Source of the DNA: Patescibacteria group bacterium
GTDB taxonomy: Bacteria; Patescibacteriota; JABMPQ01; JAHIRA01
Assembly (NCBI GenBank): GCA_018818205.1
Contig: JAHISJ010000012.1
Location: 21,523-85,522, forward strand
DNA length: 64,000 bases
Reading direction: 5' to 3'
Shown here piece after piece: positions 26,492-52,780 of this stretch. The translations under genes and the position numbers were made by a program. Below the pieces are notes generated by a model. That model saw only the letters and a list, made by a program, of their open reading frames with translations, was not told where the DNA came from and did not search any database. Position 1 is the stretch's first letter, and every line of letters begins with the position of its first letter.

Positions 26492-26564
26492 GCCCCGATA
26501 GCTCAGTGGATAGAGCGCTTCCCTGCGGAGGAAGAGGTCGGACGTTCGAGTCGTCCTCGGGGCA
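26492..26564 (+). tRNA. tRNA-Arg (anticodon GCG), no encoded CCA
   Basis: Acceptor GCCCCGA/TCGGGGC, anticodon stem CTTCC/GGAAG, loop CTGCGGA, T-arm GGACG-TTCGAGT-CGTCC. Confidence 0.8.
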
Positions 26565-26690
26565 CGTCGGAACAATATTCCAGTCTGCGCATGCACCTTC
26601 GCTACGCTACGGTGCCTGCTCCGACTTCCATATTGTTCCTCCTTCTCCCCAAGAAATCAGAATTTCTCGGGGGCCCCATTCTCTTGTTTT
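26565..26690 (-). repeat. inverted copy of the ~120-bp tRNA-linked element, abutting the tRNA-Arg 3' end via the same CTGGAATATTGTTCCGACG terminus
   Basis: The reverse complement aligns to copy B at 3075-3208, including the GGGGCCCCC palindrome and GGAGGAACAATATGGAAG. Confidence 0.75.
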
Positions 26691-30346: not shown

Positions 30347-31504
30347 TTACGAAATATCGAGTGTATAAAATTTACTGTCAAGCCCGTTAATGTAATATAA
30401 CACCTTTTCATCTTGGTTGTAAAACATTTGATGGTAATTAACCGGCTTTTCTGGATCTGCAACAGGAAGGGTTGTTTCTTGTTCTGTTGGAATATTATAC
30501 CTAATCAAAAGCTCCGGTGCCGTATCACTCCACATATCAAAGGAAACGGCACAAACCATATTTTGGTCATCCTCAAAAACACATTTATTCGCAAACGTTT
30601 CCAGATTGGTTTCTTTAAACGACTCATCCTTGAGATTGTAGAGTACAACATTTGTTGCCGCCCTATCGTCATCGTCTGTTCGCCTGTCTGCAATAAGAAA
30701 GGTTCTATCTGGAGAAAGAAAAAAGTTAACCACAGGGCCGATAACGGAAAGTACCGTTTCTTCTTTATTATCAAGCGTTAGCTTAGTTAACAGCGCACCA
30801 TCAGTTGCTGAAAACTCATTTTGATAAATAATATAATTATCAGCCACCCACACAAAGGTAAGCCCCTGATAATACTCATCCGTGTTTGGGAATGAATAGA
30901 CTTCTTCCCAATTTTTTCCATCTGGATCAGCAATATTAAGTGTATTTTTTCGCTTAAACGCGTTCACGAACTGATACATAATTTTTTTTGAATCGGGTGA
31001 CCATGTTATTCCCTGTGTATCTTCAGGAAGTACTGCTGTATCCTTGCTAGTTAAGTTTACATATAGCTGCTTCCCTTCAGGATTTGTTGCAATTGCTTTA
31101 GTTCTGTCAGGTGAGAAAGAAACATCACTCATCTGCTCTTCAAACGTATACACTGTTTCCTGTCCAGTTTGAGAGAACTTCATAATAGCATTGCTGCTTG
31201 GAGAGAAGTAATAAAAACTACCATCGGGTTGATAAGATAATTGCTCATCTTGAAATGTCTGATCAGGAGTGGCATCACTTGGCTTAGTAAGTGGGCCGAT
31301 TGCCCCCTGGTTCACTTCTTCTTGTCGCTTTACAATTACCGCTGATGACTCAATAAAGTTTTCTGACGTATTTTCTGTTACTACCTCTTCAGTCTTTGAA
31401 TCACTACGTGTAAGCAATACACTGATGATAATAACACCGCCAACAACCACAAAAGCTACAGCGATGATGATGATAACCAGTTTTCTTTTCTTAAAAAACC
31501 CCAT
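30347..31504 (-). CDS. membrane-anchored PD40/TolB-like beta-propeller protein
   Basis: N-terminal TM helix. Repeated SPDxx motifs (SPDRT, DPDGK, SPDSKK). Confidence 0.45.
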   Translation of the reverse strand: MGFFKKRKLVIIIIAVAFVVVGGVIIISVLLTRSDSKTEEVVTENTSENFIESSAVIVKRQEEVNQGAIGPLTKPSDATPDQTFQDEQLSYQPDGSFYYFSPSSNAIMKFSQTGQETVYTFEEQMSDVSFSPDRTKAIATNPEGKQLYVNLTSKDTAVLPEDTQGITWSPDSKKIMYQFVNAFKRKNTLNIADPDGKNWEEVYSFPNTDEYYQGLTFVWVADNYIIYQNEFSATDGALLTKLTLDNKEETVLSVIGPVVNFFLSPDRTFLIADRRTDDDDRAATNVVLYNLKDESFKETNLETFANKCVFEDDQNMVCAVSFDMWSDTAPELLIRYNIPTEQETTLPVADPEKPVNYHQMFYNQDEKVLYYINGLDSKFYTLDIS

Positions 31505-32628
31505 TATTTTTGTTTACGGTAAACAGATAACGTTCCACCAGCTGGTGCGGTTATCCCCGTTGTGCCAATGCACTGTAATTTTGTAGTACCAGCGCTTTTG
31601 GTAAAAGTACTTTTAACATTGTCATTGTAATTCCCCGGACCATGATTTTGCCATTCAGGATATGCCGCAAGCTTGTTTTCACACTCAAACGTTTTCCCTT
31701 TTGAATTTTTTGACATATAAGTGTCACTGGTGGTACCCTTTCCGGTTCTAGTAAGATTGCAAGCCGCACCGGGAGATGGCGTGTATGAATGAATTACTTT
31801 TCCGCCTCCCACAGCCAACATTGAATGCTGAGAAGTCCCACTTGACGATACTCGTATAACAATATCACCTGCCTGAATTGAGTTAGGATCACCATTATAC
31901 GCAATTTTCTTAAACCCATTTGTCACAAGATCATTTTCGTGATACCCACGTGACACTGAAGGCGAGATTTGCTTTGAACACCCACTACCAGAGTTTAACG
32001 CCCAGCCCACAAAGTATGCACAGTGGTTACCGACTACGCACGCCCCATCAAGTTCCTTAGCCTTTGCAATAGTTGACTGAGGATCCCCACACTTTGTTGT
32101 ACACCACTTATTGTCTTTCCCCTGTGCACACTCCTCACCACTTTGCTTTGCTTTCTCACACGCATCCTTTGAAGCATAAGTAGTTCTTCCTTTACAAACA
32201 TCAGTGAAACTACCACTCGTACCAGATCCTGTACCCGCTCCCGGAACGTTATATCCTCCCGCAGAACCAAGAAGCTGTGGTTCTTTACAGACCAAAATAT
32301 TTGGTGCCAGCGTACTAAAAACAAGCCACGAGGCAAGGACTAATATGACACCAATAATAGCACCTAGAATAACTTCCTTTGCTTTAGTCATCTTCTCCGG
32401 ATTGCCACCGCTCATCATGTACATAGAGCCGCCAATAATCACCGCAATCACCGCCAAAATTCCTACCACACTTACTCCAAAGTTAAAAAGGTTCTTTGCA
32501 TACTGACAAAACGTGCTTCCCTGAAAAAATATATTTGCGGCGAATGCAGAAATAGGCGCAACCAAAACCGCAACACTTACCGTGCCTAAAAATAAACCAT
32601 ACATCTTTTTAACGCTTCTTCTCTGCAT
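31504..32628 (-). CDS. membrane protein with C-terminal CHAP/NlpC-P60-like peptidoglycan hydrolase domain
   Basis: Signal peptide plus two hydrophobic segments. C-terminal Cys (CAYFVGWAL) and His (HSMLAVGGG) blocks. Confidence 0.45.
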   Translation of the reverse strand: MQRRSVKKMYGLFLGTVSVAVLVAPISAFAANIFFQGSTFCQYAKNLFNFGVSVVGILAVIAVIIGGSMYMMSGGNPEKMTKAKEVILGAIIGVILVLASWLVFSTLAPNILVCKEPQLLGSAGGYNVPGAGTGSGTSGSFTDVCKGRTTYASKDACEKAKQSGEECAQGKDNKWCTTKCGDPQSTIAKAKELDGACVVGNHCAYFVGWALNSGSGCSKQISPSVSRGYHENDLVTNGFKKIAYNGDPNSIQAGDIVIRVSSSGTSQHSMLAVGGGKVIHSYTPSPGAACNLTRTGKGTTSDTYMSKNSKGKTFECENKLAAYPEWQNHGPGNYNDNVKSTFTKSAGTTKLQCIGTTGITAPAGGTLSVYRKQK

Positions 32629-32644
32629 TTTTACTCACGCTTAC

Positions 32645-33892
32645 CTACTTATTTTCAGGAACAATAAGTCCATACAGTCTATCATCTTGACGTCTTTTGA
32701 AATACATCGTTCTGCCACTTTCAGAAATAAATGGATCAAAGACATCATAAGCGAGATTAAACTCTGTTGGCCCGGCAAGACGTTCTTTTTTGCCGGTATC
32801 AGTATCAATTCTAAAAAATGAATCTTCAGTTACATAATTTTCTTGCAGGTAATCATCTGGAAGAACAAACTCAACATTTTTATTCTGTGGAACTCCACAG
32901 TAAACAGTTTTATTATCCGGAGCAAACGCACACTTCTCTGCCATGGTAGAAAGTCCTAAATCTTTGTGCTCATTTCCTTCAATATCGGTCATGTATAAGA
33001 ACACTTCATTAGGACGCGCAGAGGACGCGGTGTAGAGGAGTTTTTTACCATCGGGTGAGAGAGTATATGAAAGACCATACGCATCTCCCACAACTGTCGT
33101 CATAGTGTCTCCTGATGTCTCGAGTGAGAAGAGTGACGTCATATCGTATCCTGTTGGTTCCTCAGCAACCACAAATTTAAATGGGTCAGGCCATGCAAGT
33201 GACACATTATCCATGTGATACGGACGTACTATCTTCCACTTTGACCCATCAAAATCAGCCGATGAAATATTTGAAACGTCATTATTTTGATCAACAAAGA
33301 GATAGACTATCTTTGAACCATCGGGAGATACTGCTGCATCAGCTACATTGTTTCCAAGGTCGTTAAATGCCTGATTGTTAAAGTTAAAAGAAATAAAACG
33401 CTTCGTAGTACCCGCATCACCAGAAAAGACCACAATCGCTGCATCTTTTGAATCGCCCCATTTGACATTGTACACATTATTGAATCCACCACTCGTGATG
33501 GCTTCTACCGATGATCCATCCGGGTTGCTTTGATAGAACTCGTTATTCACCGAGTCGAAGTACAAAATCTTTTGTCTATCTTTAGAAAGTGTTGGTGAAA
33601 GAACATCGCTGTCGAGTACCTTTCGCACTGTTACCTCAGATACATCTTCAAAGCCAGGCCTGTTTGCGTCTTGCTGCGACTGTAATTCTTTTTGTTTGTC
33701 TGCCTCTGTTTTCCCCTGTGCTATTTCCTCATCGGTAAGCCTAATACGAATATCCTCACTACCTACAAGAGGTGTTATTGCTCCTTGCTCAGTCACCACT
33801 TCTTTTGGCCTCAGCCACGTATACAAGACAATACCAATTATCACAACGGCAACCGCACTGCCTATTATTATGTACAAACGCTTTTTAGTCAT
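32645..33892 (-). CDS. membrane-anchored PD40/TolB-like beta-propeller protein (paralog of 30347-31504)
   Basis: N-terminal TM helix. SPDGSK and SPDGKK repeats. Confidence 0.45.
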   Translation of the reverse strand: MTKKRLYIIIGSAVAVVIIGIVLYTWLRPKEVVTEQGAITPLVGSEDIRIRLTDEEIAQGKTEADKQKELQSQQDANRPGFEDVSEVTVRKVLDSDVLSPTLSKDRQKILYFDSVNNEFYQSNPDGSSVEAITSGGFNNVYNVKWGDSKDAAIVVFSGDAGTTKRFISFNFNNQAFNDLGNNVADAAVSPDGSKIVYLFVDQNNDVSNISSADFDGSKWKIVRPYHMDNVSLAWPDPFKFVVAEEPTGYDMTSLFSLETSGDTMTTVVGDAYGLSYTLSPDGKKLLYTASSARPNEVFLYMTDIEGNEHKDLGLSTMAEKCAFAPDNKTVYCGVPQNKNVEFVLPDDYLQENYVTEDSFFRIDTDTGKKERLAGPTEFNLAYDVFDPFISESGRTMYFKRRQDDRLYGLIVPENK

Positions 33893-33928
33893 AAGAAGAC
33901 TTGCTAGAACTAAAGTTAGATAGGTATA

Positions 33929-36900
33929 TTATTTTTTTAATTCGGGACGCCCTTTGTACATCATGTACACTATTGCGGCAAGAAGGGCAAAACCACCAAG
34001 AGCGAAGGTAACATTAAAGACGTTCTTGTAGTGTTCCGGAATAAATTTGGATATTGATCCGGAAATAAATTCTTCTTCATTAATTTCAACACCCTCAGCC
34101 AACTCAAATTCAAATGCAGAGGAGAACCTCAGTGTCTGAGTCGCACTTTGCTGTAACACATTATCATAATCTCCAGTCACTTCTCCCTCAGTTGATACCT
34201 CAAATGTAATTTCATCAATATCTCCATCGGTTGCGGACGCCGTGAATGTATATGATCCTGGTGATGGATTTGATCCTTGAATTTTTCGTGTTGCATTTTC
34301 ATCAATAACACCGTTTCTAGACCACGCATACTCAAAGCCTAAACCCTCAGCGCCACCACCCGGAAGCGGTCTAAAATACTGCGGTGAAACAAACACGGTT
34401 ACTTCAGAACCGGGAACCACTTTGTATTTTGATTCAGAAGTATTTGTATTATCACCACCCGTTGAAACAAGCTGTGCACCATCTACTTTTGCTTCAACGT
34501 ACGGTCGAACTACTCTGAGTTCTTTAATATCTCTTGCAAAAAGTTCACCGGTCCCTGTGTTTATTACTTCAAGCCTAAGATAATGACTACTATCATCATC
34601 TACTTGCCTCAAATCAGAGCCCTCGCTAGTCATTGCGACCTGGATACCTGACATACCGGCACCGCTCTTTTCTTCTTGGATTAAATCGTCAAAGTACCAG
34701 TTGTACACAAGTTTTTCCGCTAAGTCATCTGGACACTGTTTGCCAGCACCCTTTGCAATATCTGTTTCTAAATCATCAAGTTTTGCAGTGACACGTACAA
34801 CATCACCCACTCTATATCCCTTTCTTGGATCAACGGTGGTGTTTGCATTTTTCTTAAACTCACCGTTATCAATCGCGTTTTCTACATCTAGAGAATTATC
34901 CTTATCAACACCATCTTTAAGTGCAGCTTCTAACGAGGTGTCTCTTATTTCATTAATTGCTGAGGGATCGTTAAGATTATACGCTTGAAGCACGGTATCT
35001 CCAGCCGGGTCTACATTGGTAATTAATGCTTCTGTCAGTGAAACATCTGAGCCAATAGGAATCTTGACGTCACCATGTGTGGTTGTACCTGTCTTATCAT
35101 CCACCAAATCAAGACCAACTGTACGTGAGGTACAGACTCCAAGAGTCTTCCCTGGATTTAATTTTCCCCAAATGGTTTCTCCGTCATCAATATTGAACTC
35201 TAAGTTCTTTTTATTTGTGCCTGACGGCGCAAACATATCGGTACCCAGTTCCTTCTTACTCTTTACCATAAAAGCACTAGCAAATTCAAATGGGCCCACT
35301 AGCTCAGATTCGGGTGCCGGAAGCGGTACATTGTCTAAATACCATTGGTAAAAGAGGGGTACCGTTGTTTCATCTGTTGATGTTGCCCCCGCGGTTACTA
35401 ACACTGGGTTTCCTGAACTATTTCCTGAATTCTTATTTATTTTTGTCACCGGATACGGTGCATATACAAGCCTCACTGGAATAGGTAGCCCCCCACCTAC
35501 ACGAAGCGACTTTTGATCATCGGCTGATTCAATCCACCATTTGCTTACATTTTGAGAAGCATTAGGCGCGGCATCAGCTCCTCTCACCTGTGAACCTCTT
35601 GTGCTATCACCGACTACATGTACCTGTACTTGTATGTTGTCACCTGCTTTTTTATTAAATACAACCGGAACCGCCTGTTGTTTTAGGCCTATATAATCTG
35701 CTCCATCGGGAATACCATCAGCGTCTGTATCAGCATTTTGTGGATCGGTCCCCGCAATATATTCCATAAAGTTTGCAAAGATGCCTCCACCCGAGACCAC
35801 CTCAATGGTATTATTTTTGGCGGTAGATTTAAAATTTGGCGCTCCAAGTTGCCATCCTTCAGTTACTATAGGTGACAGCTGTTTGCCTGCACTAATCATA
35901 CACGATTCATTCTCAAGAAGTTGAATCCACTTAGAGCCAGGAGTTTTATCCGGATATTCATTCTTAAAATCATAATTACAATTGTTGAGCACATCATTTA
36001 CATGCACTCCATCACCATCAGGGTCTTCCAGTGGACTCACGGATCTTAAGAAATTCCCATACATTTTTTCAGCATTGTCTTTTTCTCCAATATCAATCTT
36101 GCCGTACTTTTGATTTTCTTTAACCGGCCAATTACCCCCGGCGGCAAAACCTAAATAGGGTGAAAAGAGAATAAATTTTTTGGCAGCAGGTGGCTGAACC
36201 TTTTTGTCTTGCCCCGCGTATTTACCAAAATACAAAAGTTCCCATGAATCTGCCATACCATCGGCATCTATATCATCATCCGCGTTAACCGTTCTCTCAA
36301 ATGCAAGAGAATCGCGTATATCTTTCTTTAAAAATTGAGAAGATCGTGCCGCTTGTTGTAAAAAATACTGCTGCAGGTTCTGGTTCTGTGGTTGATCTAA
36401 TCCATACTTATTTTCAACTGCTGCAAGTTTTTGTGCAAGCGCTTCTTGCTTCTTTTGATCTTTGGGATTATTTTGAGCAGATATAACTAAATTGGCATAC
36501 TCTGTTGAAAGCTCACGTGCCTTTTTCTCCCATAAAAGGTCCGGATCTTTTTGAGCTTCGGTAAGCTTTTTCAATTCTTCTTTTGAATAAACGCCTTCCA
36601 AATTTCGTGCAAGCTTACTTTGAACACTAATATCTTTATTAAACAAAATATATCGAGCTACGTCAGCATACTGTGCTGGAACTGCAGGTACGAGAGGGGC
36701 AATAAAATAATTATCATTATGTATCCGAGCGTCACCGGATCCATCCATACCAAGCACATCTGTAGCAATATACTCAAAATTGTAAATGTTTTTAATATTG
36801 CATGCACCTTTGCCTCCTTTAAGCTCTCCATATTGGTTCTTAATGGCATAGGTATCATCATCTTTTTTGACAAATTCGTCCGCAGAGCCTGTTATAAATG

Positions 36901-37198
36901 TATTGACCGGAATATCATCAAAACACCAATTATAAAAAAAGTCAGTTGCAATACCTCTACCACCAAAGTTATTTATCTGTGCAAAAACCGTTGCCTCTGA
37001 CCCCGGCGAAACATAAAAAGATGGTTGTGCCTCAATAGCAACTGAAGGAGGATCGGCTTCAGTTGCTTGCTTTAATTTTTCGGCTTTTATTTCCGGTTCT
37101 CCATAGGCAAAAATCGATGAAGGACGTATTAAAACAAGACTCAAAGCACAAAGTCCTAAGACTACTCCAACAAACAATAAAACTTTTTTTTGTGACAT
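33929..37198 (-). CDS. large (1089 aa) secreted surface protein with Asp-rich Ca-binding-like repeats and a C-terminal TM anchor
   Basis: Signal peptide. DxDxDG motifs (DDDIDADGMAD, DPDGDGVHVND, DTDADGIPDGADY). C-terminal hydrophobic helix plus KGRPELKK tail. Confidence 0.5.
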   Translation of the reverse strand: MSQKKVLLFVGVVLGLCALSLVLIRPSSIFAYGEPEIKAEKLKQATEADPPSVAIEAQPSFYVSPGSEATVFAQINNFGGRGIATDFFYNWCFDDIPVNTFITGSADEFVKKDDDTYAIKNQYGELKGGKGACNIKNIYNFEYIATDVLGMDGSGDARIHNDNYFIAPLVPAVPAQYADVARYILFNKDISVQSKLARNLEGVYSKEELKKLTEAQKDPDLLWEKKARELSTEYANLVISAQNNPKDQKKQEALAQKLAAVENKYGLDQPQNQNLQQYFLQQAARSSQFLKKDIRDSLAFERTVNADDDIDADGMADSWELLYFGKYAGQDKKVQPPAAKKFILFSPYLGFAAGGNWPVKENQKYGKIDIGEKDNAEKMYGNFLRSVSPLEDPDGDGVHVNDVLNNCNYDFKNEYPDKTPGSKWIQLLENESCMISAGKQLSPIVTEGWQLGAPNFKSTAKNNTIEVVSGGGIFANFMEYIAGTDPQNADTDADGIPDGADYIGLKQQAVPVVFNKKAGDNIQVQVHVVGDSTRGSQVRGADAAPNASQNVSKWWIESADDQKSLRVGGGLPIPVRLVYAPYPVTKINKNSGNSSGNPVLVTAGATSTDETTVPLFYQWYLDNVPLPAPESELVGPFEFASAFMVKSKKELGTDMFAPSGTNKKNLEFNIDDGETIWGKLNPGKTLGVCTSRTVGLDLVDDKTGTTTHGDVKIPIGSDVSLTEALITNVDPAGDTVLQAYNLNDPSAINEIRDTSLEAALKDGVDKDNSLDVENAIDNGEFKKNANTTVDPRKGYRVGDVVRVTAKLDDLETDIAKGAGKQCPDDLAEKLVYNWYFDDLIQEEKSGAGMSGIQVAMTSEGSDLRQVDDDSSHYLRLEVINTGTGELFARDIKELRVVRPYVEAKVDGAQLVSTGGDNTNTSESKYKVVPGSEVTVFVSPQYFRPLPGGGAEGLGFEYAWSRNGVIDENATRKIQGSNPSPGSYTFTASATDGDIDEITFEVSTEGEVTGDYDNVLQQSATQTLRFSSAFEFELAEGVEINEEEFISGSISKFIPEHYKNVFNVTFALGGFALLAAIVYMMYKGRPELKK

Positions 37199-37224
37199 AA
37201 CACTTCTATGAAAAATTGTTCAAA

Positions 37225-37929
37225 TTATCCTAAAAGGAGCTTGCTAATGCCGTTTAATGCTGTAATCATTGCACTCGTACTAAACGTTCCAAGCCACAAT
37301 GCAACTTTAAACGTCTTAGGCCATTCAACTGCTGCATACATTATAACAAAAACAACTAACACTGTAATCACTAAACCAAGAATAATCTCCGGTGCGGCCG
37401 CAATGATCATTGGACCAAATTTCTTCCAGATCGTCTCTTTTACTTTTTTTGAAACGGTTCCTTTTCCCTTCTTGCCCTTTCCCGCTCCCTTTTGTACATT
37501 TTTTAATGCGTCTTGCTGTTTTTTTCTGAGCTTTGCCGCAACGCCACCCTGGTCTTTGGAAGGGACAGTATCACCACTTGCTTGTTTTGCTGGACTTGAA
37601 GATGTTTCTGCTTGCGCAGGCTGATCAGGCATAGGCTGCTCGGGTTCCGCAGCACCCGCCTGGTTTCTCGACGTTTGTACCGGTTCTTGCGAATCTTCTG
37701 GAGAAGCGGAAGGCGTGATTGACTGCACCGGTTTGTTCTGCCTAGCAGAACGCATTCCCCCACCTGGAGCACCCATTTGCTGCCCTAAATTTTGAGATCT
37801 CTGCGCTGACCCTGCAGAAGACTCTTGCATTGGCTCTGGAAGTTTGGTCGGTCTATTGGGGAGTACACCTCTTCTTACTTGTACCATGTTCTTTTTTATT
37901 CCTGCCAATAAAGACCATTTGCTTTCCAC
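37225..37929 (-). CDS. membrane protein with low-complexity N-terminal region
   Basis: Pro- and Gln-rich region followed by 2-3 C-terminal TM helices. Confidence 0.4.
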   Translation of the reverse strand: MESKWSLLAGIKKNMVQVRRGVLPNRPTKLPEPMQESSAGSAQRSQNLGQQMGAPGGGMRSARQNKPVQSITPSASPEDSQEPVQTSRNQAGAAEPEQPMPDQPAQAETSSSPAKQASGDTVPSKDQGGVAAKLRKKQQDALKNVQKGAGKGKKGKGTVSKKVKETIWKKFGPMIIAAAPEIILGLVITVLVVFVIMYAAVEWPKTFKVALWLGTFSTSAMITALNGISKLLLG

Positions 37930-38663
37930 TCACCACCTTCTTTCACCATTTCTATTACTATCATAGCATAAAACGTCCGCGCTGCCTGACTGGTCTCCGT
38001 AATTTCTTCACGTTTTGTCGTTACTAAGATTGTAGCACTATTTGGTGTAGATTCCAAGACCGCTGAGGATAACGCTTTTGTGGTTATTCCATAGAATGCA
38101 TCGTTTGGATCAAGAGTATCTTCTTGCAGATTATCAAGCCATGATTTAAACGAGGTTGTCGCGTACCCTTCAATATCTTTGATATTTGAGTAGGGCTCTT
38201 TCCCTTTATTGGTGTATGACCCAAAAATCTCAACTATTTTTTCAGAAAGATCTAGCACTTCCCGATCCTCTCCATTTGCTGTGTCTTTTGCTTCCGTAGA
38301 GTCAGAAGCCTCATTAGTGTTAGTATTTGTATTCTCATTTACATTTGTATTTTCTGTAGACGCTTCTGCATTTGTGTTTTCTGTACTTTCTTGATTAGCA
38401 TTCTCAGCATCGTACGTCACGGTTCCCGTGGTATCTTCGGTGGGCGTGTCTGTGGTATCGGGATTGATATTATACGTAACTTGTGTTGACTGATCATTGG
38501 TAGCTTCAGTATTTTCATTTGCTGCCTCATCCTGCTTACATCCAAAAGCGGTAAGCAACACAAGGAGCATACTAAATGAAACAACGACACCTATTTTACG
38601 AACTATATTCATTGCTAACATCTTATACTTGTTGCGCTTCACCCTCACCCTCGCTGTATTCAT
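37896..38663 (-). CDS. putative lipoprotein with Thr/Asn/Glu-rich linker
   Basis: Signal peptide with lipobox-like LTAFGC. Confidence 0.4.
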   Translation of the reverse strand: MNTARVRVKRNKYKMLAMNIVRKIGVVVSFSMLLVLLTAFGCKQDEAANENTEATNDQSTQVTYNINPDTTDTPTEDTTGTVTYDAENANQESTENTNAEASTENTNVNENTNTNTNEASDSTEAKDTANGEDREVLDLSEKIVEIFGSYTNKGKEPYSNIKDIEGYATTSFKSWLDNLQEDTLDPNDAFYGITTKALSSAVLESTPNSATILVTTKREEITETSQAARTFYAMIVIEMVKEGGEWKANGLYWQE

Positions 38664-40518: not shown

Positions 40519-40533
40519 ACACGCATAAAATGT

Positions 40534-41271: not shown

Positions 41272-41680
41272 AGTATCTAGCGCTAGTATCTAATAGTACT
41301 GATAACTCATGAAGCTTACTTCTGGTAACTTCCTCTTTATACTCCGTTTTAAGCGTTACTGTTCTTCTCTCGGCATTGGACAACGTTTGTAGCTTTGCCG
41401 AAGTATCTTTTGCCCAAAGCCTGACCTTTGGATTGGTAGAAAACAGAATAAAATTCACTAAGAACTTCTCAAATTTTTGACCATTGATTTTTACAAAGGC
41501 AAACGTACACGCAATACCCATTAATATAATACCAGAAAATATAAAAAGACTTAAATCAAAAACCGTATACCCCGCTGTGGTAATAAGACCACCACCGAGG
41601 ATAAAAAGAAACTGTCTGATAGTAAGTGGACCTATGACACGGTCTTCAATATCGACAAATTGTGGAATTGCGTATTGCAT
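41225..41680 (-). CDS. VirB3/PrgI-like small membrane protein
   Basis: 151 aa, two TM helices, positioned immediately upstream of the VirB4 gene. Confidence 0.4.
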   Translation of the reverse strand: MQYAIPQFVDIEDRVIGPLTIRQFLFILGGGLITTAGYTVFDLSLFIFSGIILMGIACTFAFVKINGQKFEKFLVNFILFSTNPKVRLWAKDTSAKLQTLSNAERRTVTLKTEYKEEVTRSKLHELSVLLDTSARYYAESTEGSKDKRKAS

Positions 41681-41740
41681 ACGCTCTTTTTACATGAAGA
41701 GCCCCACTGGGGCCCTTTAAAAAAACTATTCAAAATCGTA

Positions 41741-43129
41741 CTAGAAGTGCGCGCTCAGCTCTGCAATCATTTCAAATTCTCGTTCTGTTAAATAAGGCTT
41801 ACCCTCGTTAAAGAGCTCTTTTCCGATGTCGGCGACCGTTTTATCTGAGGACATGCTCCGTCTTCCAATTTCTAAGTAGAGCAAATAGAGTGAACTTTTA
41901 CGCCATGCGCTTTGCAAAATATCAGATGACGTATTTTTCTTAAGATCATCTATCTGCGATTTAATGTGAGTTAACCTTTCAGCATCGGATGACCCTAAAG
42001 ATCTAAAATAATCTATAGTGATTTTTTGCAAATCATTCAGATCTTGTAGTGTTGAAAGTTTTTTTTCCGAGTTTTGCTCAATCACTCGCTTTGGTACCGG
42101 TGGTTTCCTTGGAGCTGCTTGTTCCGGTCTCCGTGCCGGCTCAGGCTTTACTTGCGGAGATGGTTTACCCTCTTCCTGCTTTTTCTTATCAGCAATAAGT
42201 GTATCTATAGAGACAACCGGAGATGCAAGTGGTGCTGGTACAACAGAAGGTTTAACTTCTGGCTTTCTTTGTAGTGGTGCTTGAGGTGCTGGTTTTTTTG
42301 CTATAGGTGGTTTTGTAGGTAGCGCAGGGGTGCTGGAAGCAGATTTTTGCGCAAGACGAGCCTCCTCTTGCAGCTGAACATCTATATTATACTCAGGCTC
42401 AGGAACCTTGAGTCTAAAGGGGTCCGAATTCACCCGTTTCTCATCATCAATAGAAACATCCCAATCAGTCATATTAATCCCTAAGCAACCGACGTCATTT
42501 ATCCGTAACTTCAACAGTTCGTAATACCTAAGTGCTCTGCTCAATACTTTTCTATCCCACTGAGAAAGTAATCGTACATTTGGAGAAGAAGTGAGATATT
42601 TACGAATTATTGTAACAATCTTTTTTCCTGTACCTACTTCATTAGTATAATCCTTAATCCAATTTTCAACCGTAGACTTTACTTTTTTTCCATCAAGCGT
42701 AATTGGATTTTTGCCAAGCTCTTCTTTGCATCGCATAACACGTTTACGCACACTCTCAAGCCGTGCTTCAAGTGAAAATATATCTATACTCATCGCATAC
42801 TGATCAAGGTTAGAGTAAAACGGCGTTTCAGCTTTTGCGTCCTGCTTCACCGCACTTAGGAAATAAAGCTCAATTGCATGTTCTGCTTGCTCCTGAAGAA
42901 AAGTGGAAAACAAATTAATCCTGAGATCTGCAACAATAGTATTGTAATGTTGTTTCGTTTCCGGATCTTTGACATGTTCAAACTTGATCTTCTCTTCAAG
43001 AGAATGCAAAAGGTCCAAACCGTCATTAACGTCATTTTGCCCCCAAAAGTAACTTTGCTTAAGACGATCCACTTCTTTTTGAACGCTTTCCAAAGTTTCA
43101 TTACTGTTCAATGATTGTTTCACTTTCAT
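41741..43129 (-). CDS. hypothetical protein with Pro/Lys-rich linker
   Basis: PTKPPIAKKPAPQAPLQRKPEVKPSVVPAP. Confidence 0.4.
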   Translation of the reverse strand: MKVKQSLNSNETLESVQKEVDRLKQSYFWGQNDVNDGLDLLHSLEEKIKFEHVKDPETKQHYNTIVADLRINLFSTFLQEQAEHAIELYFLSAVKQDAKAETPFYSNLDQYAMSIDIFSLEARLESVRKRVMRCKEELGKNPITLDGKKVKSTVENWIKDYTNEVGTGKKIVTIIRKYLTSSPNVRLLSQWDRKVLSRALRYYELLKLRINDVGCLGINMTDWDVSIDDEKRVNSDPFRLKVPEPEYNIDVQLQEEARLAQKSASSTPALPTKPPIAKKPAPQAPLQRKPEVKPSVVPAPLASPVVSIDTLIADKKKQEEGKPSPQVKPEPARRPEQAAPRKPPVPKRVIEQNSEKKLSTLQDLNDLQKITIDYFRSLGSSDAERLTHIKSQIDDLKKNTSSDILQSAWRKSSLYLLYLEIGRRSMSSDKTVADIGKELFNEGKPYLTEREFEMIAELSAHF

Positions 43130-43138
43130 ATGTGGCAG

Positions 43139-45664
43139 TTAACGCTTAACGGTTACTAAGTGAGATGTTTTATGTAACTCTTTTCTGCTATCACCAAAGA
43201 GTTCCTCAAGTTGACCCAGTGCCTTTACCTGATTTTTCTTCATATCACTAACTAAAGTATTCCATTCTGTAGTGTCTTTATACTTCACATCAACTTTGAT
43301 CATCTCTTTCCTAAAAGCTTCATGTGCTTCAGTTCCAACAGAAACAACATCTGCTAAATTCGCACGTACATCAGGAATTAAATCCCTTAATTGCTCCTCT
43401 TTTAATCCCCGTCCGTTTGCGACCAAACTGAAAGATAGTGCAGCTCCATTTCTTCCGGTATTATCGCCTTTAACATTAGCAAGCATAGAACCTGCTCCCA
43501 TAGCTAACCGTATTTTCTGCATTTCTTCTGTGGCTTCCAACTTCTTGCGAGCTTCATTCATAAATTGTGCTTCCGTTCCTATGGTATTAACATCAACGTC
43601 ACCATGAGCTATACGTTGTGCTTCATTTTGACGAAGGCCAACCACATTACCATCTGAATCAACTATCATAACTGTCTGTTGATTTTGTCCTGCCATGCTT
43701 CGCGCTGTTTGCCCAAGCTTTCGCATAGCCAATCCGGCTTCGCCTTGCCGCATTATCAAATAATCATCCACGTCCTCTACCTTGAGTTTCTTTTCTTTGA
43801 CTAACTGTTCTGCATCAGCTTGTCCTCGCCACATGGTTTTACCATTTACATTCTCTGTTACTCCTAAGTACGCTGCATTTCCCTTGCTGCCTTGGAGGTT
43901 GCCAACATTTCTTCCTTGGACAATACCCAATTTTTGGCCAAACATATGTTCCATACCTCTCATATATCCAATATAGTCATCAGACGTATTGTACGTTTTT
44001 CTTCCGTTTTTATCTAAAACTTCGTTTCCCGTTGAATCTTTAATTGCTTCATATCGACTCTTAAACCAATCTTGATTTTCTGCATCAGCTCCCCATACCG
44101 CATCGCGTACTTTTGAATCTCCACCTGCAGCATGCACCGTATCGTTCCAATTAATTCCCATACCTAGTGCTTTAGTAATCGCAAGCATTCGAATTTGTTG
44201 ATTTCTTCCACCTTTCTCTGCACCTACTACTGCAAGCTCTCCAATTAAATCATCTGATTGTAAATCAGGATGTCTAACCTTCAAATCTTCAAGTTCCTCA
44301 TCAGCAGCTTTCATTACCTCTTGTGTCTCATAATCTGTTTCATCTTTAGACCAAGGAAGTATCTTGTTGAGTTTGTTTTCAACGTATCCTCTTGAGCCTG
44401 CAGCTGCCTGGCGCTCAATCCTACCAGCTCTATTCATCCACGCATCCTTAAGCACAGTAGGACTTGCAAACTGGACCCAGCTACCAGATCTACCCTCCAA
44501 ATCTTTCTGTTTTTCTTCGTATGACTGCCCTTCCCCCGCACCAAACGCAGCACCAATACGCGAAGTCACTCTACCGGCAGTATTTTTCCAAGCCCAACCA
44601 TATGCTCCCTCATTACCCTTCATTAAAGACCGTCTATTAAGTGCTGATGCGCCCTTCCAACCTAAACCTGCTGCCCCTTTCCACAAGTTCCCATACATAC
44701 CAACACCACGTCTCAAACCCGACGTCGCCATACCGATTAACGCACCCGCACCAAAGCTTCCCACACCCTTTGCAATCATATACGTCGCAAGCAGCATCGT
44801 AACAATAAGCATGTACGTTAAGAAATGTTCTTTGGAGAAATTGGTCGGTAAAAAACTTTCCTTAAACGCCCGCTGAAGATCAGCTTTGCTTAATTGATTT
44901 GTCGAAGCACCTGCTCCAAATAACGCCTCAACACCTTTTGCGGACATACTGTTTGCCACACGCATAGTCAGATAGACACAAAATGTGGCAGCAGGACCAT
45001 ATAATACAAATTTAAAGAATTCTGACCACCACCGCTTAGCATATTGCTGCGTTGACGGAAGCACATCAAGCAAAAAGGCAAATGGTGAAACAATCGTCAA
45101 AAACATAAGTGCCGCAAATCGTACAAGAAGTAAAATCGAAATGACCAGAAGTGCAAGGACAAACACACCAACAAACACAACCAAAAAGAAAAGTGAGCCC
45201 GCAATAGAAATATCAGTAATACTCGAAGCAGAAACAGTTTCACTGATATTTGTTAAATCAGTTAACTTGAGTGATGAAAGTAACGCCGCCGATGGTTTCC
45301 CTTGATTACCAAAGGTGAAGGTCTTCATTAAGAGATCACTAATCTCTATAAAAAACGCGCAGATTGCTCTAGAGAAGTTAACAAGGAGTATTGCAATAAT
45401 AAGACGCGGCAGTATCTTTTTGTATTGATAGTTCTCTACCCGCAGAATAGTTGCAAAGGCAATAACCAGAAGAATCAATATAAAAAACATGTTCAAAATA
45501 TCGCGCACCGTAACCCACCCAAGCTGTACTGCATCGTGCGTTGCTACATTAGAAGGAACCATAACAAGAATATCAAAAAGGTCAGCAACAGCATTAAGAG
45601 CATGTCCTTCTATCCAAAGGAATAACTTCAGGATTGCACCAATTATCAAATAGACAACGGACAT
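43139..45664 (-). CDS. VirB6/TrbL-like polytopic membrane protein with long C-terminal hydrophilic domain
   Basis: At least six N-terminal TM helices in about 330 aa, then a ~500-aa soluble extension. Confidence 0.5.
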   Translation of the reverse strand: MSVVYLIIGAILKLFLWIEGHALNAVADLFDILVMVPSNVATHDAVQLGWVTVRDILNMFFILILLVIAFATILRVENYQYKKILPRLIIAILLVNFSRAICAFFIEISDLLMKTFTFGNQGKPSAALLSSLKLTDLTNISETVSASSITDISIAGSLFFLVVFVGVFVLALLVISILLLVRFAALMFLTIVSPFAFLLDVLPSTQQYAKRWWSEFFKFVLYGPAATFCVYLTMRVANSMSAKGVEALFGAGASTNQLSKADLQRAFKESFLPTNFSKEHFLTYMLIVTMLLATYMIAKGVGSFGAGALIGMATSGLRRGVGMYGNLWKGAAGLGWKGASALNRRSLMKGNEGAYGWAWKNTAGRVTSRIGAAFGAGEGQSYEEKQKDLEGRSGSWVQFASPTVLKDAWMNRAGRIERQAAAGSRGYVENKLNKILPWSKDETDYETQEVMKAADEELEDLKVRHPDLQSDDLIGELAVVGAEKGGRNQQIRMLAITKALGMGINWNDTVHAAGGDSKVRDAVWGADAENQDWFKSRYEAIKDSTGNEVLDKNGRKTYNTSDDYIGYMRGMEHMFGQKLGIVQGRNVGNLQGSKGNAAYLGVTENVNGKTMWRGQADAEQLVKEKKLKVEDVDDYLIMRQGEAGLAMRKLGQTARSMAGQNQQTVMIVDSDGNVVGLRQNEAQRIAHGDVDVNTIGTEAQFMNEARKKLEATEEMQKIRLAMGAGSMLANVKGDNTGRNGAALSFSLVANGRGLKEEQLRDLIPDVRANLADVVSVGTEAHEAFRKEMIKVDVKYKDTTEWNTLVSDMKKNQVKALGQLEELFGDSRKELHKTSHLVTVKR

Positions 45665-45690
45665 ATCTGGCTGGTATTAGTTTTTGTTAC

Positions 45691-46725
45691 TTAATTAGCC
45701 GGCTGCTCTTGTGGGATTGGGATTGACCTATTTTGTCCGCTTCTATCAAATCCTGACCCTTGTGTTTGTTCCTGTTTTTGATCTGGCGTACCTGCATTTG
45801 AAAGTGAATTCCAGATTCCGGTCACCGATGTTTCAAGAACCTGGTCTATAAACAACGCAGTAAGTGCAACTAGATCTTCAAGCACCACTGATTGAATCGT
45901 ACCTTTCTTTAAATCTGCAATACTCTTTTTTGCATCTTCCGCAAACATTAAACCGGGTGTCTTAATACGACAATCTTTGTATTTATCTACCGGTTTTTTT
46001 GGTGTTGCTGTCTTTTTAACTTTCTTGCTGGTCTTTGCCTGCTGTGCTTTGGTTGTTTTTTGCTGGTTCACATTTTTGCAATCCCTAGCCCCAAAAAACC
46101 CTTGATTAACCAGTAGCTCAAAGCGATAGTTTTGCTCAGACTTTTGGAACTGCTGAGATGCATTTGAACGTATACCAAACCACGTACTTAAATCGTTGTT
46201 TTCACCCTCAAGTTTAATCGTAAACCGATTCATAAATTCACGCTCCGCTTGCTTGAGCAATTCCGGCGTTACCCCTCCTGCTTTATTAATTGCGGCCATA
46301 GCGTCTACGGACTTTTTTATTAAACTCCTGTCAAACGTACATTCGGGCTTATAGGTACCCGGTACTCCCGCCTTGGCAAACGCAACGCGCACATTGGCTT
46401 TAATATCAGAACACAGTGAAAAACCGGTATAGGTAAGTAACACTGCCTGAAACGACTGAAAATAAAGATCCTTAATAAACCACGTCAAAATTTCCATACC
46501 ATTTATACTCAAATCGCCCGTTGCAAACTTCATAACAAACTTTTTGACCAGTGGAAAGATGGCAAATTTCCAAATCATAACTAAGACCTTGTTAAGCCTC
46601 GCATCAAGATCAATAGTTAGCCACGTTGCTGCGTGCGCGGTTTTTGGTTGCGAAAGAATTGCCAGTCCACTTGAGACAAAAACAACGCTTACAATGAGTA
46701 CAATGAGAAGAACTTTTTTGAACAT
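45691..46725 (-). CDS. secreted protein with Lys-rich C-terminal region
   Basis: Signal peptide MFKKVLLIVLIVSVVFVSSGLAILSQPKTAHA. Confidence 0.4.
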   Translation of the reverse strand: MFKKVLLIVLIVSVVFVSSGLAILSQPKTAHAATWLTIDLDARLNKVLVMIWKFAIFPLVKKFVMKFATGDLSINGMEILTWFIKDLYFQSFQAVLLTYTGFSLCSDIKANVRVAFAKAGVPGTYKPECTFDRSLIKKSVDAMAAINKAGGVTPELLKQAEREFMNRFTIKLEGENNDLSTWFGIRSNASQQFQKSEQNYRFELLVNQGFFGARDCKNVNQQKTTKAQQAKTSKKVKKTATPKKPVDKYKDCRIKTPGLMFAEDAKKSIADLKKGTIQSVVLEDLVALTALFIDQVLETSVTGIWNSLSNAGTPDQKQEQTQGSGFDRSGQNRSIPIPQEQPAN

Positions 46726-46735
46726 AGTCCAAATG

Positions 46736-47998
46736 TTACTTAGAAACAGTTATGGTATCCACAATGTCCTGCAAACCAAACTCGTTAATAACCGCAGTCA
46801 TCTCCGGAACGATTTGCCCGGCAAACACATCGTGGGCTAAATAATTAACTCGTGGGATAACCTCTGTTACAGCGTAAAGACCCTCGGCGTCGCTAAAATT
46901 TACTTGTTCTATTTGATCCAAAAGTCCCATAGACGCTAAAATGAATCCAATACTTTTTTTGTGCAGTGCAATTATCCGCTCATTATCCGGCACTTCCATA
47001 GCCTTCATTCGATCTAACACATCGCCCATAATTTTCTTAACCTTACCGGTATCTTGCTTACTGTGTAGCCTAATAGATAATGCGTATCTCTCAAACGACT
47101 CCGTGTCGGAAAAGGGTAAATCCCGTGAGAGCATAAGTGACGCGTCACTTGCATAGCGCACTACATCATCTTGTGTGTAGTTTTCTTTAATATTGATTTC
47201 GTTATCAGAAACTTCTGGAATCTCTACTTCAGTAGTGGAGCTTGATACATCCAAATCAAGACTACTATCTGCAATAAAATCGGTAACACTTTGCTCAAGT
47301 GAGTCAAGATCCGTACTATTTATGGTGTTTTCTATATTTGCAACTGATGAAGAGTTTAGGGTGAATCCACTTGCTTGTTCCATGTCAAGATCGGAGTAGG
47401 CCACTTCTTCCTCGCCAGTTATCACGTCGCTTCCACCAAAAGAATCAAACTCATCACCTGTATCAAGATTATTTTCTTCTGACGCCTCAGCATCTTCTTC
47501 TTCCATGACCTCTAATTCTTCCGTTTTTGCCTGGCTTTCTGCAATTTGTAAAAAGTATGAGAGATCCGCTTTAAGAGGGTCTGACCCGGCAATGACTTCA
47601 CGACCGTCCTCGGTGCCATCAAAATCAGTGTCTGCAACATAAGCACTCGTGCCAAATTTCTCTTCTTCTTCATCATTTAGTCCATCACCGTCTGAATCTA
47701 CTTTTTCTACACTTTTTATCTCAAGCGGATCATAGCCAGCAATAACCTCTACATTGTCGGTATACCCATCCGAGTCGGTATCAACATTGTATGGATCAAT
47801 GCCAAGCTCACGCTCTTCTTTATCAGAAATGCCATCGCCATCTGAGTCGGTAGAATCAGAGAGAAGCACGGTTGCCTTTGATGCTTTTGAGTGAAAGAGC
47901 TCATCGCTATGTGACACAAAATAATATCCTACAGCCCCAATTGCAAAAAAACCAACGATGGCCATGAGCACATATTTAAACGCACTTCTGTTATACAT
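46736..47998 (-). CDS. membrane-anchored acidic protein with thrombospondin-type-3-like Asp repeats
   Basis: N-terminal TM helix. DSDGDGISD, DTDSDGYTDN, DSDGDGLNDEEE. Confidence 0.45.
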   Translation of the reverse strand: MYNRSAFKYVLMAIVGFFAIGAVGYYFVSHSDELFHSKASKATVLLSDSTDSDGDGISDKEERELGIDPYNVDTDSDGYTDNVEVIAGYDPLEIKSVEKVDSDGDGLNDEEEEKFGTSAYVADTDFDGTEDGREVIAGSDPLKADLSYFLQIAESQAKTEELEVMEEEDAEASEENNLDTGDEFDSFGGSDVITGEEEVAYSDLDMEQASGFTLNSSSVANIENTINSTDLDSLEQSVTDFIADSSLDLDVSSSTTEVEIPEVSDNEINIKENYTQDDVVRYASDASLMLSRDLPFSDTESFERYALSIRLHSKQDTGKVKKIMGDVLDRMKAMEVPDNERIIALHKKSIGFILASMGLLDQIEQVNFSDAEGLYAVTEVIPRVNYLAHDVFAGQIVPEMTAVINEFGLQDIVDTITVSK

Positions 47999-48191
47999 GG
48001 GGTAATTTAGTCTTCTTTTTCACTCTCTGTAAGTTACAGGAACTATAACACATTTCAAAAGGGGGGTCAAAATGGTGTGGATAAGAAATAAAAAAAGCCT
48101 AACGTATGTAGACACACGCTAGGATAATTTTCTTGGATGACAGGAATATGCTTAGTTAAATTGAACAATGCTGCAGTAGCCTGAAATAAAA

Positions 48192-48854
48192 TTATTTGAA
48201 CATACAGTTAAGCCCACCAGTAACAACCATATATATTAAATATATAAAAGCGATCAAGGCAAAAAGCATAATTAAAAAAAGCTCGTCCATTTCATTCAGG
48301 CCAAAGTGCTTCTGCAGGAAACTTTTATTTGCTTCCTTTTCACGTTCTCTTGCGACTTTTTGTCGCTGCCTTTTCATTCGCTCTTCTTTTGCCTGAGGTG
48401 AGCCATGGGGAATTTCACTGAAATTGGCAATATCACGTACCATTTTTTGATCTGACAAAGAGAGTGAACCAAAATGTCTATCACCCAACAACCACCTTGC
48501 ACTAATTTGCCGATCATTAAACTGAGGATTCATAATCTTACCAGTAGGAGCACTTTTAGGATTAGGATACGGAACCATCCTTTCCGAAGGCTGATTTCTA
48601 AGTTGGTCGACTTTACTTCTAAGCACTCGAATCTCTTGCAGCTCCTTATACTTCTCAAGCTCCCCACCATCCTTAATCCACCAAATTCTTTCTTCAACAC
48701 CAGTTGCATCTTGTTCAAGTCTGTGAATATACGAGTCAACAATTTTTTGCGCCTTTTCTTGTCTGGATTTAATCAATTGGTAGTCGGAATACGAACTCGG
48801 TTCTCGCATCAACTCATCACGAAGTCTCTCATACATACCCTGTCGTTTTGTCAC
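48192..48854 (-). CDS. tail-anchored membrane protein
   Basis: Single C-terminal TM helix. Confidence 0.35.
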   Translation of the reverse strand: MTKRQGMYERLRDELMREPSSYSDYQLIKSRQEKAQKIVDSYIHRLEQDATGVEERIWWIKDGGELEKYKELQEIRVLRSKVDQLRNQPSERMVPYPNPKSAPTGKIMNPQFNDRQISARWLLGDRHFGSLSLSDQKMVRDIANFSEIPHGSPQAKEERMKRQRQKVAREREKEANKSFLQKHFGLNEMDELFLIMLFALIAFIYLIYMVVTGGLNCMFK

Positions 48855-52708: not shown

Positions 52709-52780
52709 GGAATTGTTTCCGCTCCAAACTGTAGCGTTTATCGCTGCGTTCCCTAAAGGGATAGGAGCGGAATTTTTTTA
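52709..52780 (+). ncRNA. candidate small RNA (~70 nt) ending in a strong hairpin plus T7 terminator
   Basis: TTCCGCTCC...GGAGCGGAA stem followed by TTTTTTT. Lies about 7 nt downstream of the promoter -10. Confidence 0.3.

Follow-up and report, generated by a model that had tools for sequence, protein, structure and literature searches.

A chromosomal type IV secretion-like gene cluster with a pilin fusion protein in a Patescibacteria group bacterium

We analyzed a 64,000-nucleotide (nt) stretch of contig JAHISJ010000012.1 from the assembly GCA_018818205.1 of a Patescibacteria group bacterium (contig positions 21,523 to 85,522)—hereafter called the "window"—with a focus on one of its minus-strand gene clusters. 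The genes at 30347–47998 form a single co-oriented block encoding a type IV secretion system (T4SS). With high confidence, we assign it to the chromosomal, vertically inherited T4SSs of the Patescibacteria clade, derived from the monoderm conjugation machinery of the mating-pair formation type MPF-FATA. For the epibiotic lifestyle of this huge, uncultivated bacterial radiation, few machines are known to be indispensable, and the Patescibacteria T4SS is one of them; the present locus is a compact, contiguous ABY1 example in which every core part can be assigned: a VirB2-like pilin, VirB3, a split VirB4, VirB6, and a VirB8-like protein. The system itself, the absence of relaxase and coupling protein, and the ABY1 linkage to recG, radA, and comF have already been published (PMC12102498), and the locus reveals no new principle. 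The mildly new details are the fusion of a pilin with a putative hydrolase and the conserved, unassigned partners of the system, namely PD40 propellers, a TSP3 protein, and a 462-amino-acid (aa) protein.

Core components of the cluster

All of the coordinates below are those of the whole window, in which the open reading frames (ORFs) of at least 110 aa were scanned for families. Relatives were collected from one genome per GTDB species and yielded 581 VirB4 relatives confirmed by tblastn; the locus counts refer to the best 80 of these 581. A preliminary description of the DNA, made from the sequence letters, had placed a T4SS-like cluster at 30347–48854. This span contains 14 ORFs, every one on the minus strand and with gaps of 0–60 nt, and the profile, structure, and synteny data for these ORFs bear out the proposal of a co-oriented T4SS-like cluster.

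The signature motor of the system is a VirB4-family ATPase of 631 aa (38623–40518), recognized by Pfam, NCBIfam, and Protein Data Bank (PDB) profiles. It matches Pfam P-loop_TraG (E = 3e-28), as well as AAA_10 and CagE_TrbE_VirB, and scores 363.6 bits (2e-108), against a cutoff of 325, with the NCBIfam equivalog model conju_CD1110 for VirB4-like conjugal transfer ATPases of the CD1110 family. Among the PDB entries, the matches are to the solved VirB4 C-terminal domain (4ag5, 2.7e-44) and to TrwK (2.7e-7). Both the Walker A motif (ATSGAGKS from residue 281, with SGAGKS at 283) and the Walker B motif (ILIVDE at 487) are intact. The profile search thus agrees with the earlier call of a VirB4-family ATPase with Walker A and B motifs. 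The match to the CedB model NF041017 (8e-13, 47.8 bits) falls far under the cutoff of 700.

How is the VirB4 of this cluster split? Between prgI and virB4 lies a 245-aa ORF (40534–41271), which NCBIfam and precomputed Pfam assignments mark as TrsD-like. In VirB4_plasma, the long NCBIfam model for the VirB4 of Mycoplasma integrative and conjugative elements (ICEs), this ORF occupies positions 93–279 (1.1e-9), while the VirB4 ORF covers positions 282–893. The 245-aa ORF also weakly matches TrsD (NF041427, 9.5e-5, under the cutoff) and the CD1110 model within its positions 1–95 (10–95, 3e-4), and its precomputed Pfam family is PF26593 (TraC-like). Because the model positions are complementary and these further assignments point the same way, we take the ORF to be the predicted TrsD-like N-terminal domain of the long VirB4s, encoded here as a separate gene. 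It shares 27% identity (E = 1e-21) with the gene upstream of VirB4 in Pontibacillus. A comparison between the 245-aa family and the N-terminus of the cluster's own VirB4 gave no significant similarity, either with hhalign (E = 0.52) or with BLASTP.

Three proteins would form the membrane part of the system. The PrgI/VirB3-like protein (41225–41680) is a small membrane protein of 151 aa with two transmembrane (TM) segments, and its Pfam PrgI match (4.6e-12) lies above the cutoff, confirming the VirB3-like assignment made previously. The VirB6/TrbL-like polytopic channel protein (43139–45664) consists of 841 aa, with the TM segments confined to residues 1–305 and followed by about 535 hydrophilic residues. 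By itself, this protein remains under the Pfam gathering score for TrbL (1.7e-4, 21.9 bits versus 25.9), but 11 of 28 VirB6-like orthologues from related loci in the candidate phyla radiation (CPR) match TrbL, the best with 6.8e-10, and the family profile weakly matches TrwI of R388 (E = 0.1). The preliminary assignment as a VirB6/TrbL-like protein with an extension of about 500 aa is therefore supported at the family level rather than by the score of the window protein alone, and the topology of the window protein fits.

The third membrane protein is the product of the virB4-adjacent ORF at 37896–38663, a bitopic protein of 255 aa with an N-terminal TM segment, a low-complexity linker, and a C-terminal NTF2-like domain. 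Its family comprises 84 members, of which the named ones belong to Komeilibacteria or generically to Patescibacteria, and the profile of this family matches PrgL of pCF10 (PDB 7aed, E = 0.0021). The AlphaFold2 model from the single sequence was unusable, with a predicted local distance difference test score (pLDDT) of 48, and the 84-sequence alignment was used instead. The resulting model of the C-terminal 125 residues has a pLDDT of 91.3 and a predicted template-modelling score of 0.85. In the Foldseek search, the best PDB folds were TcpC (3ub1), PrgL (7aed), TraH (5aiw), and CagV (6iqt), all VirB8-like NTF2 proteins of T4SSs. Since NTF2 proteins from outside the T4SSs, such as the CaMKII hub and ARC6, score about as well against this model, the VirB8-like call also leans on the sequence match and the virB4-adjacent position. 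Taken together, these data identify the predicted fold as that of a PrgL/VirB8-like NTF2 protein. The ORF had been described as a lipoprotein, but its homologues bear a plain N-terminal TM helix and no cysteine, and this description is not supported. A word-indexed homologue search using the C-terminal domain alone returned no matches.

The remaining core component is a fusion of a VirB2-like T4SS pilin domain with a cysteine-rich domain (31504–32628). The protein starts with a signal peptide and two TM helices (residues 1–115), followed by a basic loop and a 254-aa C-terminal domain with 13 cysteines, an arrangement that places the C-terminal domain outside of the cytoplasm. The N-terminal part matches the Pfam family T4SS_pilin (PF18895) with 7.2e-10 and 39.2 bits, against a cutoff of 26.6, and further matches are to TrbC/VirB2 (0.004) and the NCBIfam Mbov_0395 pilin-like family (9e-6). 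The membrane anchor of the fusion is thus predicted to be a bona fide VirB2-like pilin domain. The preliminary description had advised a search for VirB8, VirB2, or pilin folds among the unassigned ORFs; the VirB8/PrgL-like protein and the VirB2-like pilin were found, as was the TrsD-like part.

The C-terminal domain is rare: an exhaustive HMMER search of 1.84 billion cluster representatives retrieved just three true relatives, two of which have the same pilin fusion, and a word-indexed search with the fusion protein returned only pilin-domain matches. All four sequences of the family share an invariant His-Cys pair (residues 202–203 of the full protein) and a GH..G.G..I motif, which resemble the catalytic signature of NlpC/P60. 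Moreover, the ten best PDB profile matches are all NlpC/P60 endopeptidases, although weak (E between 0.03 and 0.8), and the Pfam NLPC_P60 values are 0.08 and 0.024. The domain is probably an NlpC/P60-type hydrolase, and we refer to it as putative. It had been called a membrane-anchored CHAP hydrolase. The anchoring stands, with the anchor being the PF18895 pilin domain, and the NlpC/P60 signals are weak. The CHAP identity found no support: the domain has no Pfam CHAP match and no similarity to the CHAP protein that the window encodes elsewhere.

Pilin-domain ORFs with large extensions occur in other loci as well. Near virB4, a hidden Markov model (HMM) search detected 79 pilin-domain ORFs, distributed over 50 of the 80 Patescibacteria loci (28 of the 80 by BLAST), and 41 of the 79 have a C-terminal extension of at least 100 aa. 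These extensions reach about 2,000 aa and mostly contain several cysteines (L072:14300–20641, L051:11803–15225, and L017:10853–11704, where L numbers designate related loci). One pilin match from the word-indexed search (P0003) bears a Calx-beta domain. Fusions of a pilin with a cargo domain seem to be common and not limited to this window.

Neither a type IV coupling protein (T4CP) nor a relaxase was detected by Pfam in the scanned ORFs of the window, and those ORFs that lack a Pfam family were also negative for both in NCBIfam. The called genes within about 8 kb beyond each window end, which extend the region to about 80 kb in all, likewise include neither of them. The scan for oriT-like repeats in the window gave short, chance-level matches only. 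The earlier statement that VirD4, a relaxase, and an oriT-like feature are absent therefore stands for the window and, in the case of VirD4 and relaxase, for about 8 kb beyond either end.

Relatives of the cluster and known systems

The VirB4 proteins of the best 80 relatives are 49–65% identical to that of the window, and almost all are labelled Patescibacteria, with Komeilibacteria, Saccharibacteria, Moraniibacteria, Peribacteria, Gracilibacteria, Azambacteria, and Kazan among the lineages. The closest ones, at 61–63%, come from Komeilibacteria-type genomes, and the host is probably a Komeilibacteria-like bacterium of the class ABY1. In contrast, the closest VirB4s in the plasmid collection share at most 36% identity, and all are from monoderms. 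Judged by identity and not by a tree, the VirB4 appears to group with the Patescibacteria homologues rather than with the plasmid or ICE VirB4s.

The other parts of the cluster recur with VirB4. The TrsD-like protein is present in 72 of the 80 loci, PrgI in 67, VirB6 in 54, PD40 proteins in 33, and ksgA in 24, and the PrgI homologues are always upstream of the TrsD–VirB4 pair. Across distant classes, the recurring order is ksgA, a TSP3-like gene, one further gene (X), VirB6, the 462-aa family, PrgI, TrsD, VirB4, small TM proteins, the pilin with or without an extension, and PD40. In the nearest relatives, recG follows the pilin gene directly in convergent orientation, and comFC lies within less than 5 kb in two of three (L001 and L002). 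Conservation across relatives, which the preliminary description had proposed to check, is thus evident from both the 581 VirB4 relatives and the gene order shared among the best 80.

These features agree with the published Patescibacteria-clade T4SS. A survey of 3,035 Patescibacteria genomes by Quinonero-Coronel et al. (2025) found VirB4 in 2,417, mostly in a monophyletic clade nested in MPF-FATA (PMC12102498). The reported components are TrsD, PrgI/VirB3, VirB6, and VirB2-like PF18895 pilins, with the PrgL-type VirB8 almost only in ABY1; relaxases are rare (109 in 103 genomes), T4CPs are rarely near virB4, ksgA is a frequent neighbor, and the ABY1 locus is linked to comF, recG, and radA (PMC12102498). 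The local orders in its supplementary table include VirB8(PrgL)–VirB4–TrsD and VirB6–x–VirB3–TrsD–VirB4–x–VirB2. The closest relatives of Patescibacteria VirB4s remain within the class, which indicates vertical inheritance (PMC12102498). In Southlakia epibionticum, transposon sequencing by Wang et al. (2023) revealed that the T4SS gene cluster (SEML1_0006–0019), including the predicted pilin subunits, is essential, and the authors noted the absence of a coupling protein and a relaxase (PMC10633639).

The window shares with this clade the level of VirB4 identity, the set of VirB6, PrgI/VirB3, TrsD, VirB4, PF18895 pilin, and the PrgL-like VirB8 that is found mostly in ABY1, as well as the chromosomal location, the ksgA neighbor, the lack of a nearby relaxase or T4CP, and the ABY1-type linkage to recG, radA, and comF. 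It differs in that a single pilin gene, fused to the rare NlpC/P60-like domain, takes the place of an array of short pilins, and in having an additional PD40 paralog as well as a 1089-aa surface protein that is specific to the lineage.

The monoderm MPF-FATA systems—TrsC-TrsD-TrsE of pGO1/pIP501, PrgH-I-J-K-L of pCF10, CD1110 of C. difficile CTn2, and Mbov_0395/0397 of the Mycoplasma ICE—have the same VirB3–TrsD–VirB4 order, the PrgL-type VirB8 fold, and pilin-like proteins of the Mbov_0395 family, and the window VirB4 scores above the CD1110 cutoff. As in those systems, the outer-membrane core proteins VirB7, VirB9, and VirB10 are absent. In contrast to them, no T4CP, relaxase, or oriT was found with the window cluster, which also lacks a PrgB-type adhesin and is not on a mobile element; its putative hydrolase is fused to a pilin domain, whereas theirs is part of a TM-anchored SLT+CHAP protein, and its VirB4 is at most 36% identical to the plasmid VirB4s.

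Within the plasmid collection, the VirB4 nearest to that of the window (36% identity) is encoded on the 898-kb replicon of Pontibacillus sp. ALD_SL1 (NZ_CP062975.1, 341316–373109). The order there is a pilin-like gene of the Mbov_0395 family, then a gene for a 779-aa protein, and then TrsD-like, VirB4, and a large peptidoglycan endopeptidase. This replicon is typed as non-mobilizable, and the annotation of the 15 kb to each side contains neither a T4CP nor a relaxase. It differs from the window in its Bacillota host, the large replicon, and the lack of PD40 and TSP3 partners. VirB2-like pilins and relaxase-less layouts may also exist in the Bacillota relatives of the CPR system.

The archaeal Ced and Ted systems consist of VirB2, VirB6, and VirB4 homologues without a relaxase, and the Ted loci co-occur with the Rad50 and HerA genes (PMC9905601). 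The window resembles them in the minimal set of VirB4-like, VirB6-like, and VirB2-like proteins without a relaxase or a coupling protein, in the chromosomal location, and in the recombination and helicase genes beside the Ted loci, comparable to radA and recG here. However, the sole sequence link is the weak CedB match, so the likeness is compositional and functional rather than one of CedA/CedB orthology. Furthermore, Ced and Ted lack PrgI, TrsD, and VirB8-like parts, and import has been demonstrated only for Ced (PMC9905601).

Proposed function and alternative explanations

What does a T4SS of this composition transport? Since no coupling protein or relaxase is associated with the cluster, it is probably not a conjugation machine, and its role is probably non-conjugative. 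By sequence and structure, the VirB6-like, PrgI/VirB3, and PrgL/VirB8-like proteins make up a translocon in the cytoplasmic membrane. We propose that, where the epibiont touches its host bacterium, the VirB4 motor would build a short pilus or channel and the fused hydrolase may open the peptidoglycan locally. The channel would then move the macromolecules needed by the epibiont. For the ABY1 lineage, the direction that we prefer is the import of host DNA or other nucleic acid, in a Ced/Ted-like manner. Uptake is favored over export because Ced and Ted share VirB2, VirB6, and VirB4, because a relaxase is lacking, and because recombination genes are neighbors: radA directly adjoins the operon, recG runs convergent to it, and comFC, comM, PcrA, and RecX are near. 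A 2025 review regards the Patescibacteria systems as a new T4SS type that may serve for uptake from the host (PMC12857230). The preliminary description had leaned toward a non-conjugative role in DNA uptake or host interaction, in agreement with published opinion (PMC12102498, PMC10633639, PMC12857230). Our confidence in the whole explanation—the T4SS identity together with the direction of import—is moderate at best.

Several points weigh against import, which is an inferred role. In S. epibionticum, the T4SS is essential but comEC is not (PMC12102498, PMC12857230), and therefore classical transformation does not explain the essentiality there. T4CP homologues are common elsewhere in the Patescibacteria genomes, with 5,713 in 2,918 genomes (PMC12102498), and Wang et al. 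favor protein export or another role (PMC10633639). In addition, the linkage to radA and recG could be mere conserved gene order with no functional coupling, and the hydrolase assignment is weak.

The strongest alternative is the export of effectors or other proteins combined with adhesion, in which a VirB2-type pilus would attach to the host and deliver proteins, such as the fused NlpC/P60-like hydrolase, for nutrient release, and DNA would not be a substrate. Wang et al. take the missing coupling protein and relaxase as pointing to protein export or an alternative role (PMC10633639), and protein exporters without a T4CP do exist, namely Ptl and the Brucella VirB system (PMC12102498). The fusion of the hydrolase domain to the pilin, the large cysteine-rich extracellular extensions on half of the nearby CPR pilin-domain ORFs, and the TSP3 and propeller surface proteins inside the operon would all suit such a role. 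However, the known T4CP-less exporters draw their substrates from the periplasm of diderms, which fits poorly with a monoderm, and neither effector candidates nor secretion signals were identified. Export also gives no reason why DNA-repair and competence genes are consistently linked to the locus in ABY1, and we consider it unlikely, though worth serious attention.

Within the import reading, the pilin may also act as a carrier: its C-terminus would display the NlpC/P60-type hydrolase, or other cysteine-rich domains in the relatives, to breach the host wall, and the host nucleic acid would be imported to RadA, RecG, and ComFC. If true, the system would be a contact-dependent counterpart in bacteria to the archaeal Ced importer, but we regard this elaboration as speculative and distinctly doubtful.

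An ordinary conjugative or integrative element, with a T4CP and a relaxase encoded elsewhere in the genome and acting in trans, is highly improbable. The T4CP genes often lie well away from virB4, and some Patescibacteria, although a minority, do carry relaxases (PMC12102498); furthermore, the left 26 kb of the window is low in GC and contains IS110 and IS4 transposases, and a tyrosine recombinase lies about 8 kb past the right end. Nevertheless, the cluster resides among housekeeping genes (ksgA, radA, and recG) with the synteny kept across CPR classes, it does not differ in GC content from the flanking core genome, and the VirB4 relatedness within the class speaks for vertical inheritance (PMC12102498). 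An ICE identity was rejected on the grounds of this conserved synteny and matching GC, together with the lack of an adjacent integrase and of a relaxase or T4CP within the region of about 80 kb, where the oriT-like repeat scan was also negative. Because no T4CP or relaxase was found and the housekeeping synteny is conserved, it is very unlikely that the cluster forms a self-transmissible element. Finally, a decayed remnant with no current function, to which the high divergence or missing family match of several components might point, is hardly credible, as all of the ORFs are intact, the Walker motifs are preserved, and more than 580 bacterial species with reduced genomes have kept the system, which S. 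epibionticum cannot do without (PMC10633639).

Accessory proteins, operon boundary, and neighboring genes

The operon's first gene encodes an acidic surface protein of 420 aa (46736–47998), which matches Pfam TSP3_bac in four stretches (5.1e-17). It starts with an N-terminal TM or signal segment, contains thrombospondin type 3 (TSP3) calcium-binding motifs at residues 51, 73, 101, and 123, and consists of 22.4% aspartate plus glutamate. In the related locus L017, a TSP3-like protein occupies the same slot after ksgA. The 1089-aa predicted surface protein (33929–37198) has an N-terminal signal, a C-terminal TM anchor (1059–1081), and two TSP3-like DxDxDG motifs at residues 309 and 490. Its aspartate plus glutamate content of 14% is unremarkable. 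Searches of Pfam, NCBIfam, PHROGs, and the PDB recovered no match for this protein, none of the 80 loci contains a relative of it, and it is lineage-specific. Both proteins had been described as giant, Asp-rich, calcium-binding surface proteins. This fits the 420-aa protein with its four TSP3 repeats, but not the 1089-aa protein.

Two PD40 propellers were also expected. The TolB-like beta-propeller PD40b (32645–33892), an N-terminally anchored protein of 415 aa, matches Pfam PD40 (4.5e-9) and DPPIV_N (8.6e-6), as well as the TolB propeller model TIGR02800 (1.9e-7, far under the cutoff). PD40a (30347–31504), a second, N-terminally anchored protein of 385 aa, is weak in Pfam PD40 (0.056), and its place as a paralog comes from its BLASTP match to PD40b (E = 2e-10). 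PD40 homologues near VirB4 adjoin the pilin gene in the loci inspected.

Directly upstream of prgI is the 462-aa protein (41741–43129), which has a Pro-rich linker and no predicted TM segment. An iterative HMM search found its family in at least 20 loci, with lengths of 290–560 aa and ending just before PrgI (e.g., L001:7468–8811, L017:6446–7630, and L024:6550–8241). The family has no Pfam or meaningful PDB match, and the window protein also lacks an NCBIfam or PHROGs match. The slot of this family also appears, unannotated, in Table S3 of PMC12102498. From its position and recurrence, we regard the family as a predicted conserved component of the CPR T4SS.

Two further ORFs belong to no recognized family. 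The 344-aa membrane protein just upstream of VirB6 (45691–46725) has an N-terminal signal or TM segment and two more hydrophobic segments, and no Pfam, NCBIfam, PHROG, or PDB match. In L017, L049, and L070, an N-terminally anchored ORF of about 490–527 aa takes its slot, a likeness of position only. The 220-aa protein (37225–37887, with the start of the gene caller) has a disordered N-terminus rich in Pro, Gln, and Ser and a C-terminal TM region, with no significant family in Pfam, NCBIfam, or PHROGs and no match in the PDB; in L001 and L003, the same slot is held by a 161-aa ORF with two TM segments. The main text and the accessible supplementary text of PMC12102498 make no mention of the PD40, TSP3, and 462-aa partners or the pilin extensions. 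These under-discussed partners, including the pilin–cargo fusions, could guide work on the transported substrate.

The TSP3 gene at 47998 is probably the first of the operon. Upstream of this gene, the minus strand contains a promoter-like site (48070–48042, TTGACC-17-TATAGT with an extended TG), the best sigma-70-like match in the region, and a terminator-like hairpin (48123–48098) with an 11-pair stem and a T-run. These calls are consensus matches only, and their region-wide counts do not exceed those in shuffled sequences; only this intergenic pair (48042–48123), a likely operon boundary, was used, and with caution. Since the pair lies between them, the ORF at 48192–48854 is probably not part of the operon, and of the originally proposed span, 30347–47998 is retained.

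At the other end, radA (29006–30346, minus strand) is co-oriented with the last cluster gene with zero intergenic gap. Its product has a KaiC-type ATPase, Zn-ribbon, ChlI, and Lon_C domains in Pfam, and it is context rather than a part of the T4SS. The recG gene (26907–28991, plus strand) is convergent toward radA and the cluster, as in L001–L003. Further DNA-processing genes make the surroundings dense in this function: comFC (2163–2855), PcrA/UvrD (54145–56355), and comM (59149–60663) in the window, and RecX and a DinG-like helicase just beyond its ends. The recG, radA, comFC, and comM genes reported in the preliminary description are thus present by coordinates and domains, and the ABY1 linkage has been published (PMC12102498). 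In other classes, comM and pcrA are also near virB4 in about 10 of the 80 loci. The flanking genes, called on the metagenome assembly from ENA, include ClpB, RecX, and unknowns in the left 8 kb or so, and the DinG-like helicase, two DUF3352 proteins, PNPase, NYN, S15, and the tyrosine recombinase in the corresponding right flank. In that assembly, the contig with the T4SS stops near window position 6706, so the window stems from another, longer assembly.

About 8 kb from the cluster, a LysM+CHAP gene (56697–58019) adjoins an SLT transglycosylase gene (58435–59082). Because this pair jointly carries both domains of the monoderm VirB1-type hydrolases PrgK and TraG, the two are candidates for the cell-wall function of the T4SS. 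The first part of the window (1–26500), with a GC content of about 0.35 versus 0.41, ends at a tRNA-Arg gene (26492–26565) and contains IS110-family and IS4-type transposases, two Fic genes, Mrr and PD-(D/E)XK nucleases, and several family-less ORFs; it is probably a variable island. Finally, the Rfam DUF3800-IX RNA motif (52715–52778, plus strand, 55.5 bits) adjoins a DUF3800 gene (52778–53413, minus strand).

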